NCBI GenBank assembly: GCA_963836075.1
Contig: CAWIIB010000001.1
Location: 352,001 to 416,000 of the forward strand
Direction: 5' to 3'
DNA: 64,000 bases
Source of the DNA: an uncultured Acidobacteriota bacterium
GTDB taxonomy: Bacteria; Acidobacteriota; JAQAZP01
The notes beneath the pieces were generated by a model that did no database searches, had not been told where the DNA came from, and saw only the letters and a list, made by a program, of their open reading frames with translations. Of the stretch, positions 54,518 to 60,895 are shown piece by piece. Position numbers and translations under genes: made by a program. Each line of letters starts with the position of its first letter. Positions within the stretch are counted from its first letter, which is position 1.

Positions 54518-55996
54518 CTAGAAACGATACACCAGGGTCAGTTTTGCCCCCTTGAACGGGTCCTCGTAGCGGCACTGGCCGCCGGAACAGACCTGGCCGC
54601 CCTTGAGCGACCCGACAAAAAGCGTCCCCTGCAGGGAGTCGGTGATATTGGCCGTCAACTCGCCTCCCCAGAAATTGTTGTAGTCCCAGACAGGCACCTG
54701 GGCATACTGGTACAGGGCGCTGAGAATCCAACGTCCGGAAAAGGAATAACCGATGGAGGATTCGATTTCGGTGTTGCAGAAGAAGGGGTCCCGGGCATAC
54801 TTGATCAGGCCGTCGATGATGATGCTGTCCCGCTCAAAGACGTCGATGGTCGCGGCCAGCGATGCCTTGTCCTCGTTCTTGCCGTCCACCTCGGTCCGCT
54901 TGCCGGCCCAGACGTGGATATAGCCGATGCCGAAGAGGTCGTCCTGCTCGATCCCGCCGTAATAGTGCTCCACAATAGAGCCGTTGAGCAGGTTCTCGAA
55001 CCGGCTGTAGCTGACGTAGAGGTCTGAACCGGTCTTGTTGATGTAGTAGCTGGGTTTGACCCGGAACCCGCGCGTGTCGTCCGGAGCGAAGAACTCGTCC
55101 AGCCGGTCGGCATTGGGCGGGTTGTTGTGATTGTACTTGAACCGCTGGTAGTCCTTGTATTCGGCCAGCAGGGTGAACTCCCCCTGGTAGTAGGTGGCGG
55201 CCATGTAAAGGCCGTGGCCCTTTTCCCCGGAGGGTTCCAGCTCGCTGTCCTTGACCGCGTATTCCCCGTAAAAGTCGAGGTGATCGAAGATGCCGGGTAT
55301 GTCAACAAAGAAGCTGCCCAGGAGATGCTCACCCTCGATCCAGTCGTCGGTCTTGTCGTCGGAGTAGACACCGGTGACGCCCAGCCTGATATCGCGGGGC
55401 AGGAGAAAGGCCGCCCGCAGACCGCCGATCCAGTCCTGTTCGTCGGTGATCTTGTTGTCCACGAAGCCGCCCAGCAGATCGAATTCAAAATGCTTGAAGG
55501 TAAACGAGGTCCGTGCGCCGCGGATGGTGCTGTCGAGGAAGATCACCGGGTCGTAGAGGACACTGAGGGTCATGCCCCGCTCGAAGGAGGTGAAGAAGTC
55601 GCCGGCCACGCCGTAGAACTTGTCGCCGGAATAGTCGATGAACGCCCGGTCCACCTGGACGAAGTCATTGAACTCCCGGTACGGTTCGCGGGGGAAGAAA
55701 TTGGCGATGTTGAGGGTCAGGCCGATGGTCACCCGGCCCTTGTGCAGGTAGCCGTCGAAAATATTGCGATACTGGTTTTCTTCCCCGGCGTTGAACATCT
55801 CCTGGTTGTAGCGGTATTCAAAGGCGTTGCTGCCCGTGAAATTCCACCCGTCGTACCAGCTGTCGTCCGTGTCGTCCTCACCCTCGTCACCAAGGACAGG
55901 TCCGCTCACGGCAAGGAGGGGCAGAAGGAACAGGGCAATGATCATCAGGAAACGGCCGGGCCGGATCGCCCGTTTGAACAGATCAGCCACGATCAT
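54518..55996 (-). CDS. Outer-membrane beta-barrel protein (DUF6029-like)
   Basis: Signal peptide, amphipathic Tyr/Gly-rich strands, GDFFTSFERGMTL, EYKDY, C-terminal GGQVCSGGQCRYEDPFKG...YRF. Confidence 0.75.
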   Translation of the reverse strand: MIVADLFKRAIRPGRFLMIIALFLLPLLAVSGPVLGDEGEDDTDDSWYDGWNFTGSNAFEYRYNQEMFNAGEENQYRNIFDGYLHKGRVTIGLTLNIANFFPREPYREFNDFVQVDRAFIDYSGDKFYGVAGDFFTSFERGMTLSVLYDPVIFLDSTIRGARTSFTFKHFEFDLLGGFVDNKITDEQDWIGGLRAAFLLPRDIRLGVTGVYSDDKTDDWIEGEHLLGSFFVDIPGIFDHLDFYGEYAVKDSELEPSGEKGHGLYMAATYYQGEFTLLAEYKDYQRFKYNHNNPPNADRLDEFFAPDDTRGFRVKPSYYINKTGSDLYVSYSRFENLLNGSIVEHYYGGIEQDDLFGIGYIHVWAGKRTEVDGKNEDKASLAATIDVFERDSIIIDGLIKYARDPFFCNTEIESSIGYSFSGRWILSALYQYAQVPVWDYNNFWGGELTANITDSLQGTLFVGSLKGGQVCSGGQCRYEDPFKGAKLTLVYRF

Positions 55997-56582
55997 CTTC
56001 CCCCTCCGCACTGCTGCTGTCCGTGTCGGCTCCCTCGCCGGCGCCGGGAAGCAGTTCGAGAATCTTGTTCCTCAGTTCCACTTCGTCGCCGGTGTTGTAG
56101 CCGAGGTGGGTGTAGACCACCTTGCCATCCAGGTCGATCAGCGCCAGGTAGGGCAGAATGGCCCGGGGGTTGTAGAGCTTGACCACCTGCTGTTCCGAAT
56201 CGAGCAGCACGGGGTAGCTGTACCCCTTGCGCCGGACCAGCGGTTTTACCCCGGGGATGTCGCTGGGCCCGTCGGTATTGATGGCCAGGATCTCCAGCCC
56301 GCGGTCCTTCAACTCTTCATAGAGTTCCTGCAGCTTGGGCATCTCCTTGCGGCACGGTTTGCAGGCAATGTTCCAGAAGGAGATCACCACCACCTTTTCC
56401 CCGATGAGATCGCTGAGCCGGTGGGTAGTGCCGTCGGTGGCCTTGAGGCTGAAGTCGGCGGTCTTCTTCGAACCGCCGGCGGCCTGGGCCGGGGCGGCCG
56501 CAGCCAGCAGGACAACCAGCGCCAGGGCCAGCGTCAGACCGATGCCGACCAGGTTGGACTCGTGCTTCCTCCACAACTTCAT
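55983..56582 (-). CDS. Periplasmic TlpA/ResA-family disulfide reductase
   Basis: Signal peptide, DFSLK, FWNIACKPCRKEMP, YPVLLD, cis-Pro loop ILP. Confidence 0.92.
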   Translation of the reverse strand: MKLWRKHESNLVGIGLTLALALVVLLAAAAPAQAAGGSKKTADFSLKATDGTTHRLSDLIGEKVVVISFWNIACKPCRKEMPKLQELYEELKDRGLEILAINTDGPSDIPGVKPLVRRKGYSYPVLLDSEQQVVKLYNPRAILPYLALIDLDGKVVYTHLGYNTGDEVELRNKILELLPGAGEGADTDSSSAEGEDDRG

Positions 56583-56647
56583 TCCGGATGTTCCTTTCTC
56601 GCATGACCGCGTCGGGCATCGTCTCGAGCCCGTTCCGGTCTCAGGTA

Positions 56648-57217
56648 TCAGAGCAGTGACTCGACGGCCGCCCGGATTTCTTCCTCGTCGTAGCCGATGA
56701 AGATGTAGCGAACAACGAAGCCCCGGTCGATGACCACGTTCACCGGCAGGGCCCCCATGCCGTAAATCTGGTCCACGGTGCCCTGGGTGTCGGCCAGCAC
56801 CGGGAAGGTGATGCCGTATTCGTCGGCCCACTCGGCGGCCTGTTCCACGGTGGCCCGGTCCCCGCCGATGACATCGTCGTCCACCAGCACCTCAAGGGTG
56901 ATGAAGCCCTGGCCCACGTACTCCTGGTAGAACGCCTCGGCCTCTTCAGCCTCCTCCCGGCAGGGAACGCACCAGAGGGCCGAGAGGGTGAGCAGGATCA
57001 CCTGCCCCCGGTAGTCCGACATGGTGGTGGTGCCGCCGTACTGGTTGGGCAGGTTGAAGTCGATTGCCGGTTCGCCCACGCCTACAACGCCGCTCGGGCC
57101 CACCACCTCTTCCTTGCAGCCAGCGGTGAAGACCATCCCAACCAGCAGAAACAGGACGGCCATCCTCCGGATTCCGGAAGGACGGAACGGTATGAAAGTC
57201 AATTTTTCTCTGCGCAT
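56648..57217 (-). CDS. Lipoprotein TlpA/redoxin family protein
   Basis: Lipobox TAG-C, DFNLPNQ, WCVPC, FPVLAD, ALP. Confidence 0.9.
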   Translation of the reverse strand: MRREKLTFIPFRPSGIRRMAVLFLLVGMVFTAGCKEEVVGPSGVVGVGEPAIDFNLPNQYGGTTTMSDYRGQVILLTLSALWCVPCREEAEEAEAFYQEYVGQGFITLEVLVDDDVIGGDRATVEQAAEWADEYGITFPVLADTQGTVDQIYGMGALPVNVVIDRGFVVRYIFIGYDEEEIRAAVESLL

Positions 57218-57311
57218 ATCCTCTATTCCCCGCCTTTCAGGCTCCCCAAGGACCTGGTCATCAATCTGTATATAGATCTTCCGGCAAACGACAAAATCTC
57301 TCCACAAAAGC

Positions 57312-57353
57312 AACTCCTGTTGGAGTTTAGCCGGAATTCACGGGCCATGTCAA
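57312..57353 (-). promoter_or_regulatory. sigma70 promoter with overlapping palindrome, upstream of the TlpA operon
   Basis: TTGACA-18 nt-TAAACT on the minus strand; AACTCC-N4-GGAGTT overlaps the -10/+1 region. Confidence 0.6.
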
Positions 57354-59224: not shown

Positions 59225-59320
59225 CAATTGCCTTCCATTTTTCCTAAAACGCCATATAATACCAAATTATTGAACCGATTACAAGTTTTGGCTTTCCCGG
59301 GGGCCTCAAATCTTGCCTCA

Positions 59321-59350
59321 TTGACCTTTTGTCCGCCCCTTTGCTACTAT
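59321..59350 (+). promoter_or_regulatory. sigma70 promoter of tRNA-Leu
   Basis: TTGACC-18 nt-TACTAT with an extended TG. Confidence 0.7.
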
Positions 59351-59378
59351 TTCACCTCGCTCTTGTGGCGACATGGGT

Positions 59379-59466
59379 GCCGGAGTGGCGGAATTGGCAG
59401 ACGCACGGGACTCAAAATCCCGCGGGCCCTAGGCTCGTGTCGGTTCGACCCCGACCTCCGGTACCA
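59379..59466 (+). tRNA. tRNA-Leu(CAA)
   Basis: Acceptor stem GCCGGAG/CTCCGGT, D-loop TGG, anticodon arm CGGGA-CTCAAAA-TCCCG, long variable arm, GGTTCGAC T-loop, encoded ACCA. Confidence 0.97.
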
Positions 59467-59523
59467 GTTTTTTCCCTTCTGCCGGCCGGGCCGCCTCCCG
59501 GAAAAACACGGAGCCCGTTGGAA

Positions 59524-60309
59524 TTGAAACAGGCAGCATTCTCCCGGTCCAGACGATCCGTCCAGCTTCTCACGATGCTCGTCCTCGTCCTGCTGCTCCT
59601 GCATCCCGGATGCGGTGAACCGGAGCCCGGCGGGCCGGGCCGCACCGCCGGCAGCCGGGCCGGCCTGGACGATGCCGGTGAGCTGCCGCCCCCCCGGATC
59701 GAGTTCGATTCCCTGGAGCACGATTTCGGTGACATCGAAGATGATCAGCCGGTGAGCCACCGCTTCACCTTCCACAACCGCGGCAACTCCCTGCTCTTCA
59801 TCCGCAACATCCAGCCCTCCTGAGGCTGCACGGCGGCCGTGGTCACGGCCCGCAGCCTCTCCCCCGGCGAGCAGGGTTCGCTGGAGATCACTTTCGACGG
59901 CAAAAAGAGGAGCGGCCGGCAGGAGAAGACCGTGCGGGTGAGCAGCAATGACCCGGGACAGGAAACCGTGGTGCTCACCATCAGGGCCTACATCCACCGG
60001 GCGCTGATCCTCAAGCCGGAAATTGCCCGGGTGGGGCCCCTGGGGCCCGATGAAGAACGGGTGGTCCGGCTGGAACTGCTGATCGAGGATCCGGCAAACG
60101 TAACGGTCAGCCGGATCAGTTCCAGCGCACCCTGGGTCGGCGGCCGCATCGTGGACGACCCGCAGAACGAGGGGGGCATGATCCTCGAGGTGAAAGTCGC
60201 TGCCGGGCGGCCGCCGGGGAAGTTTCAGGAGACCCTCACCCTGCACACCACCAGCCCGGAGATGCCGAAAATCGATATCCCGGTCACCGGCATGGTGCTG
60301 GACAAGTGA
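59524..60309 (+). CDS. DUF1573-domain lipoprotein, predicted selenoprotein (Sec at TGA 59821-59823)
   Basis: ORFs 59329-59823 and 59839-60309 are in the same frame; readthrough gives HDFG..FTFHNRGNSLLFIRNIQPS-U-GCTAA..LSPGEQGSLEITFD..KTVRVSSNDP; lipobox HPG-C; start uncertain (TTG 59518/59524 or ATG 59575). Confidence 0.88.
59822..59859 (+). promoter_or_regulatory. Bacterial SECIS element
   Basis: Upper stem GGCCGT/ACGGCC starts 11 nt after UGA with a GGUC apical loop; lower stem GAGGCTGC/GCAGCCTC. Confidence 0.8.
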
Positions 60310-60319
60310 TCTTCCCCGA

Positions 60320-60895
60320 TCAGTCGAAGTCAGTTTTGACGTACAGCGGGTAGAAGGGATACCGGGCGGCCAGCTTCTCACCGCCGCCGGCCTGGCGGTC
60401 GACGATGCAGATCACCCCCAGCACCTGGAGCCCGGCGCCCTCGATCTTCTCCAGGGCCCTGAAAATGGCCCCGCCGGTGGTGACCACGTCTTCCACGATG
60501 ACCACGCCGGCTCCCTCCGGGGGAGCGTTCTCGATGTCCAGGTTTGTGCCGTGTTTCTTCGGCTCCTTGCGGACGATGAAGGCCTGCACCGGGTCTCGCG
60601 GCAGTTGTTCGCTGCGCATGGCCGCGGTGGCCGCGATGGGATCGGCGCCCAGGGTGGGTCCGCCGATGGCCGCCACCGGCGTACCGGCGGACTCGATCTC
60701 CCCGAGGATATCCATGATGGCGTCGGCAATGAGCAGGCTGCCCCGCGGGTGGAGGGTGATGTTGCGGCAGTCAAAATAGTAGTCCGAGACCTGCCCCGAA
60801 CTGAGCACGAAACGGCCCTTGAGAAAGCAGCGTTCGGAGATGATCTGACGCAGTTCCCGCCACCCCTCTGTTTCGCGATACCGAGCTTCACTCAT
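60320..60895 (-). CDS. pyrE: Orotate phosphoribosyltransferase
   Basis: GRFVLSSGQVSDYYFD, GGPTLGADP, VRKEPKKHG, VEDVVTTG, VDRQ. Confidence 0.96.
   Translation of the reverse strand: MSEARYRETEGWRELRQIISERCFLKGRFVLSSGQVSDYYFDCRNITLHPRGSLLIADAIMDILGEIESAGTPVAAIGGPTLGADPIAATAAMRSEQLPRDPVQAFIVRKEPKKHGTNLDIENAPPEGAGVVIVEDVVTTGGAIFRALEKIEGAGLQVLGVICIVDRQAGGGEKLAARYPFYPLYVKTDFD

Follow-up and report, generated by a model that had tools for sequence, protein, structure and literature searches.

The window analyzed here is a stretch of 64,000 nucleotides from the genome of an uncultured Acidobacteriota bacterium (genome G000; 6.23 Mb, 10 contigs, 94.7% complete). On its forward strand, we identified a single gene at positions 59524–60309, which consists of 261 codons followed by a TGA stop codon at 60307–60309. 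This frame contains one in-frame TGA (59821–59823), which is codon 100 counted from a TTG at 59524. It stands in the context S-U-G-C-T, in the middle of an intact DUF1573 domain, and is the predicted selenocysteine (Sec, U) codon. A standard ORF listing breaks the gene at this position into 59329–59823 and 59839–60309. The public predicted proteins of close relatives (P0002, P0003, P0004, P0007, and P0009) begin directly 3' of the TGA, with N-termini of the form M/VVTA(R/S)SLSPGE, which agrees with the claim of a first-pass annotation of this DNA that gene callers split the gene. That annotation also placed the gene just after a tRNA gene, and this was confirmed: tRNA-Leu (CAA) occupies 59379–59466 on the forward strand, outside the gene and directly 5' of it. 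A tRNA-Leu (CAA) was also found upstream of the orthologous gene in two genomes of the same genus (G001 and G002).

The start codon was assigned to 59524 on three grounds. A GGAG sequence at 59510–59513 lies 10 nt 5' of the TTG, and both genus orthologues have an ATG at the codon aligned with it. In addition, the strain variant recovered from sequencing run X5 has gained an ATG at the start and lost an internal one: the TTG at 59524 has become ATG (T>A), and the internal ATG at 59575 has become CTG (A>C).

The read-through protein begins with a predicted signal peptide (59524–59613) that ends in HPG-C30 (TGC at 59611–59613), and a Pro/Gly-rich linker after it extends to about residue 55. The lipobox of bacterial lipoproteins follows the pattern [LVI][ASTVI][GAS]C. 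When ...LLLLHPG-C30 was compared with this pattern, the Gly at −1 fitted, but the Pro at −2 and the His at −3 did not. The protein had earlier been taken as a lipoprotein without reservation; because the Pro at −2 of Cys30 departs from the lipobox, this was too firm, and with a possible but non-canonical lipobox the protein is rated a possible lipoprotein. The context of C30 is HPG-C-GEPEPGG in the window genome and APG-C-GEPEPGG in G001, in which the Cys is conserved. The G002 orthologue (L026, minus strand) has a second in-frame TGA at the codon aligned with 59611–59613 (AAG-TGA-GEPEPGG), which could encode Sec at the lipidation site or could be a TGC>TGA error in this 280-contig assembly. 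The fold after this extra TGA (−22.0 kcal/mol, compared with −31.5 and −27.4 kcal/mol in the TGC orthologues) is not distinctive.

Two Ig-like domains follow the linker. The first, a DUF1573/HYDIN-like Ig domain at 59698–59991 on the forward strand (residues 59–156), bears the U100-G101-C102-T103 turn. Residues 59–156 of the read-through protein matched the Pfam model of DUF1573 (PF07610) with an E-value of 4.4e-29 and a score of 100.8 bits (cut-off, 26.1). Because this match covers positions 1–97 of the 98 in the profile, the domain continues across the TGA, as had been claimed together with the location of the TGA at the first Cys of an SCGCT motif. The same residues also matched the HYDIN/VesB-like Ig domain (PF22544), with 67.2 bits. 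The second domain, at 60004–60297 on the forward strand (residues 161–258), had no match in Pfam and was recognized as an Ig-like beta-sandwich from strands modeled by AlphaFold2 with pLDDT >90, from its fold resemblance to HYDIN/ASH-type Ig repeats and 2qsv, and from a profile match to the first domain of 2qsv. The G001 orthologue (L025) and several database relatives (P0003, P0004, and P0009) have a third Ig-like domain, which begins past the point at which the window's protein ends (TGA at 60307–60309); the window gene and the G002 orthologue are shorter, two-domain versions.

The AlphaFold2 model of the read-through protein was computed from a 25-row alignment (A1), one row of which came from an unpublished genome (G025), and it had a mean pLDDT of 88.4 and a pTM of 0.69. 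It consists of two beta-sandwiches, with strands within residues 59–158 and 161–258 (pLDDT >90), preceded by a low-confidence signal and linker region in which residues 11–25 form a helix and residues 1–50 have pLDDT values of 50–68. In this model, U100-G101-C102 forms a tight turn that joins strands 91–98 and 103–107. The nearly invariant residues of the alignment are G69, N85, C100, G101, C102, T103, P114, G115, K135, and P165. The best Foldseek matches were the HYDIN/ASH Ig repeats of ciliary central-pair proteins, the SPD-2 domain of CEP192, and 2qsv. A single-protein sequence search of the PDB found nothing, and a profile search of the PDB sequences found only HYDIN and 2qsv, the latter via its first domain (E-value, 1.2e-7). 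A CGC at the position aligned with U100-G101-C102 is absent from 2qsv in the profile alignment and from the HYDIN match. Because the solved relative 2qsv lacks the CGC motif, no solved structure displays the Sec-Gly-Cys site.

Immediately after the TGA, RNA folding predicted a bacterial SECIS (bSECIS)-like hairpin at 59822–59859 on the forward strand (−19.9 kcal/mol for the single hairpin). Its upper stem, GGCCGU/ACGGCC (59835–59840/59845–59850), is a perfect helix of 6 bp, and its apical loop is the 4-nt GGUC (59841–59844); the spacing after the TGA is 11 nt to the upper stem and 17 nt to the loop. In the bSECIS model given in the Fig. 2 legend of PMC13188914, the loop has 3–9 nt with a G in its first two positions, the upper stem has 4–16 bp, the distance from the UGA to the loop is 16–37 nt, and the minimum free energy is ≤ −7.5 kcal/mol. 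The window hairpin satisfies all the constraints in that legend (4 nt, GG, 6 bp, 17 nt, and −19.9 kcal/mol). For genes as rich in G+C as these, it is a permissive model: Cys-form homologues form hairpins too, and 16 of 18 Cys forms also satisfied its spacing rule. When the 81-nt segment was folded, the z-score was −2.28 and 4 of 200 shuffled sequences folded at least as well; the fold alone is only modestly better than chance, and it is the comparison between genes, rather than the hairpin, that supports an excess over chance. An Rfam scan of 59300–60400 found no family at the hairpin, and the sole match above the gathering score was the tRNA.

The hairpin, with its GGUC loop and an upper stem 11 nt after the TGA, had been likened to that of Escherichia coli fdhF. 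Having found no printed statement of an 11-nt rule for fdhF in the texts consulted, we folded the E. coli K-12 fdhF segment after the codon-140 UGA in the same way as the window segment, and the likeness was upheld. Both have a GGUC apical loop and an upper helix that begins 11 nt after the UGA, and the UGA-to-loop spacing is 18 nt in fdhF and 17 nt in the window. The predicted upper helix of fdhF differs in having an unpaired U at +17, whereas the window helix is perfect over its 6 bp, and the lower stem of the window hairpin is longer and richer in G+C.

We then compared the hairpins of Sec forms (n = 20) and Cys forms (n = 18) of the domain. The mean best-hairpin energy was −14.6 kcal/mol in the Sec forms and −12.0 kcal/mol in the Cys forms, a marginal difference (one-sided p = 0.059) between related sequences that are not independent. 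The loop-G rule was non-discriminating, since by hand count 13 of the 20 Sec forms and 10 of the 18 Cys forms satisfied it. The position of the hairpin discriminated the two forms better than its energy, because the apical loop started at +20 to +24 in 19 of the 20 Sec forms, compared with +10 to +37 in the Cys forms. At the nucleotide level, codons 102–109 are identical across the three genus orthologues. Within codons 100–112, 10 of the 12 codons with identical amino acids are also identical in nucleotides, compared with 59 of 123 elsewhere (Fisher p = 0.019, for a region picked post hoc and three related sequences). This constraint on synonymous sites lends the SECIS reading some support.

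The in-frame TGA was then examined across genomes. In a six-frame search, the read-through protein had matches in 23 of 41 genomes, and the two genus orthologues, which are 68–69% identical to the window protein, both keep the TGA. A single-protein search for related loci returned nine, of which eight were of Bacteroidota type (among them Flavobacteriaceae, Saprospiraceae, and Alistipes) and one was from Candidatus Delongbacteria. To compare the motif column, 38 DUF1573 domains were extracted from 33 loci. The TGA of each of the 20 Sec forms stood first in the x-G-C motif (UGCT in 16, UGCA in 2, and UGCS in 2). The same column was Cys in the 18 Cys forms, as CGCT in 15 and as CSCI in 3, all of the latter being tandem partners.

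When 151 genomes from the phylum were surveyed with the Pfam model, 149 DUF1573 matches were found in 78 of them. Exactly one in-frame TGA was present in 37 of these matches, from 28 genomes (hand count), and no TAA or TAG occurred within any of the 149. The homologues with TGA at the same column that had been called for earlier as a test were thus found, both as the 20 Sec forms and as the 37 phylum matches. The selA gene was found in 120 of the 151 genomes and in all 28 genomes with a TGA-form DUF1573, although in one of these (G137) the match was only a contig-end fragment (224 bits). The 15 DUF1573-positive genomes without selA had 21 matches, none of which was a TGA form. TGA forms therefore occurred in 28 of 63 genomes with selA and in none of 15 without it (Fisher p = 5e-4, which is overstated because related genomes are not independent). 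One unpublished genome (G025, with a Cys form) is counted in these tallies, and another (G048) enters the denominators only.

Contigs assembled from sequencing runs were also compared at this position. Those of X1, X2, and X5, runs of three separate studies, cover 59821–59823 without any difference; X1 is possibly the source sample itself, and X5 represents a distinct strain, which differs at 13 other sites over 377 bases. Because the contigs of three studies and the two orthologues keep the TGA, a base error is excluded, and no contig had the TGC that would have pointed to one. The orthologues, the contigs, and the lack of TAA and TAG in the family matches together speak, as the first-pass annotation did, against a nonsense mutation or a base error.

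The window genome contains two further DUF1573 genes with a TGA at the same column, L055 (G000:C9:2363854-2366093) and L056 (G000:C1:848506-848850). One of these two is in tandem with a Sec-less partner with the motif H-C-S-C, and both G001 and G002 likewise have a tandem of Sec and HCSC DUF1573. Further pairs of DUF1573 in tandem were observed in G005, G018, G035, G050, G089, G101, G113, G125, and G137. The Sec + HCSC tandem pairs may form heterodimers.

The machinery for Sec insertion, which had been named as a test of the reading, was all found in the window genome. It comprises selA (562.8 bits; cut-off, 268), selB (365.7 bits; cut-off, 242), two selD genes (348.5 and 345.8 bits), and a tRNA-Sec, which scored 74.7 bits with Rfam RF01852 (gathering score, 47) and was also called tRNA-SeC, anticodon TCA, by ARAGORN. 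The selD copies are at G000:C4:17381-18301 and G000:C9:892330-893256. Because each has one in-frame TGA, selenophosphate synthetase is itself a selenoprotein in this genome, and is duplicated.

Based on these results, we predict that the TGA at 59821–59823 is very probably decoded as selenocysteine. ORF 59524–60309 would be a single gene whose product is exported and has two Ig-like domains, and the UGA at codon 100 would be recoded to Sec by SelB and tRNA-Sec under the direction of the hairpin at 59822–59859. For the tryptic peptide that contains Sec, the QPSUGCTAAVVTAR given in the first-pass annotation is corrected to NIQPSUGCTAAVVTAR, which follows R94.

Two other readings of the TGA were considered. 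If it were a true stop, the gene would either be decaying through a nonsense mutation or an assembly error, or be two separate genes, one for a 99-residue N-terminal product and the other for a product from the GTG at 59839. This is exactly the split that gene callers give, and because termination competes with UGA recoding, a certain amount of truncated product is to be expected under either reading. Nevertheless, we consider a true stop very improbable: the TGA is kept in two orthologues with 68–69% identity and in contigs from three studies, 37 of the 149 family matches have one TGA and none has a TAA or TAG, TGA forms occur only alongside selA, and the fragment from GTG 59839 would be without a signal peptide and half of a beta-sandwich. 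Alternatively, a near-cognate tRNA (Trp or Cys) might read the UGA and place W or C at position 100. Low-level read-through of UGA does exist in bacteria, but nothing specific favors it at this locus, and we rate its chance as slighter still. The genome has the full Sec machinery, the geometry of the hairpin is that of a SECIS, the homologues align a Cys and in no case a Trp with this position, and no TGA forms were found in genomes without selA. Selenocysteine thus remains the preferred reading of codon 100.

We also examined the gene neighborhood, since a TlpA operon near the gene had been suggested as its source of reductant. Two adjacent AhpC/TSA-Redoxin (TlpA-like) ORFs lie on the minus strand, at 55983–56831 and 56648–57313. 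Their listed frames overlap by 184 nt, so the downstream ORF probably starts later, and they are followed on the same strand by a DUF6029 protein and an ABC/FtsX pair. Three genes, a methyltransferase, carD, and tRNA-Leu, lie between the TlpA-like ORFs and the selenoprotein gene. At six other DUF1573 loci, none of the 34 neighboring ORFs scanned was thioredoxin-like, and no recurring partner was found; the neighbors there included glycosyltransferases, a sulfatase, an M64 peptidase, MgtE, and a sigma factor. The suggestion of an operon partner was not supported, because the TlpA-like genes are neither co-oriented with nor adjacent to the selenoprotein gene and no such linkage was seen at the six other loci.

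As to what the Sec-Gly-Cys pair does, whether as a redox or a metal site, we can only infer; the redox or metal-binding function put forward in the first-pass annotation was unsupported. The protein would be tethered to the envelope by its N-terminus, either through a lipid on Cys30 or with a signal peptide that is uncleaved or cleaved, and the Sec-Gly-Cys turn between strands 91–98 and 103–107 would be its working site. Sec100 would act as the nucleophile and Cys102 as its partner, and the pair would cycle between selenol/thiol and selenenylsulfide on an Ig scaffold. Sec at the first position only is the usual pattern of a nucleophile with a resolving partner. Sec/Cys pairs reportedly mark catalytic redox cysteines, a point that Fomenko et al. 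are said to have made in 2007. Because Sec replaces only the first position in 20 of 20 Sec forms and C102 stays Cys, Sec100 is the probable reactive residue. Three observations speak against a redox enzyme: the fold is not that of thioredoxin, its best matches are Ig/ASH repeats, which are non-catalytic, and the DUF1573 loci examined have no redox partner in common among their neighbors. On balance, an extracytoplasmic redox site at Sec100/Cys102 is suggested by the sequences at slightly short of an even chance. Taken as a whole, the explanation that combines an OS_HP2-type Sec gene, hairpin-directed recoding, and an envelope-tethered redox site appears probable to us as the best account of the locus.

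The same residues might instead bind a soft metal or metalloid (e.g., Cu(I), Hg, Zn, or As), possibly across a dimer, and serve in sensing, sequestration, or hand-over at the envelope rather than in redox cycling. The catalogue that includes DUF1573 also has, among its tabulated entries, metal-related selenoproteins from similar organisms (MerT-like, YHS, mercuric-reductase-like, CobW-like, and cation ATPase); Ig-like domains are usually binding modules; and the lack of a recurrent redox partner nearby would also suit such a role. Nonetheless, no metal transporter or regulator recurs beside the loci examined, there is no further invariant His, Cys, or Met that could complete a site, and Sec at the first position only is the usual signature of a nucleophile. 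Metal binding is the main rival to the redox site, but a tentative and rather unlikely one. Returning to the redox site, a bolder form of that reading would make the Sec-Gly-Cys turn the catalytic centre of uncharacterised envelope-anchored oxidoreductases without a thioredoxin fold, expanded in this sediment lineage. The expansion has figures to it, namely three Sec paralogues in one genome and Sec forms making up about a quarter of the DUF1573 domains in the phylum sample; we regard this extended form as speculative and rather unlikely. A further proposal, much less likely, is that selenocysteine itself serves as the lipid-attachment residue, if the lipobox TGA of G002 is real.

The family to which this gene belongs has already been described. 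Zhang and Gladyshev named OS_HP2 as a new selenoprotein family with two Sec sequences in Olavius symbionts (2007, Table 2 of PMC1976440), and their table of 2008 gives the entry "OS_HP2, pfam07610, UxC, 2, 2, 354" (PMC2398784), that is, 2 Sec sequences against 354 Cys homologues in the GOS data. OS_HP2/DUF1573 is also listed in tables of reviews of 2022 (PMC9312934) and 2026 (PMC13188914). The description of the gene as a hidden selenoprotein is not supported as a new insight, because OS_HP2, as pfam07610 with a UxC/UGC motif, has been published since 2007–2008. NCBIfam has a model for this family (NF041425, "OS_HP2 family (seleno)protein"), on which the window protein scored 77.7 bits, under the cut-off of 100; from this score, we assigned it to a divergent branch of the family. 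Of eight relatives scored, only two Cys homologues passed (P0012, 101.3 bits; P0013, 108.4 bits), and the other six, five of which are Sec forms (79–99.7 bits), scored 47.4–99.7 bits, all under the cut-off. The window gene is thus an unannotated, rather divergent member of an already catalogued selenoprotein family.

The gene is of value chiefly for repairing annotation and for drawing attention to a family that occurs frequently in this lineage, and a selenoprotein specialist would find none of it surprising. The gene and its close relatives are public only as post-TGA fragments, which have lost the N-terminal signal and half the domain, and NF041425 at its present cut-off would miss this branch. 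The DUF1573/OS_HP2 family has been on paper for nearly twenty years, and a full-text literature search on "DUF1573" found no function assigned to it. With its frequent Sec forms and the strict first position of Sec, it is a practical choice for an initial study of its biochemistry.

Among known systems, the closest in fold are the HYDIN/ASH-type Ig domains, to which the window protein is linked by its PF22544 match (67.2 bits), and 2qsv of Porphyromonas gingivalis; these share the tandem beta-sandwich fold. They differ in that 2qsv and the ciliary proteins are without a CGC/UGC turn and serve as modules for structure or binding. A close chalcogen pair able to form a small-ring disulfide or selenenylsulfide is also shared with CXC-motif redox sites and with vicinal Cys-Sec sites, for example the GCUG end of mammalian thioredoxin reductase; the fold and the position in the chain are different in the window protein, and this likeness is a lead only. 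OS_HP2 itself shares pfam07610, a single Sec within a UxC/UGC motif, homologues with Cys in that column, a stem-loop immediately 3' of the UGA, and the lack of an assigned function. The window protein differs from it in having a second Ig domain and a possible lipobox. Furthermore, in contrast to the ratio of 2 Sec to 354 Cys sequences in the GOS data, the Sec form is common in the phylum of the window, at 37 of 149 matches.
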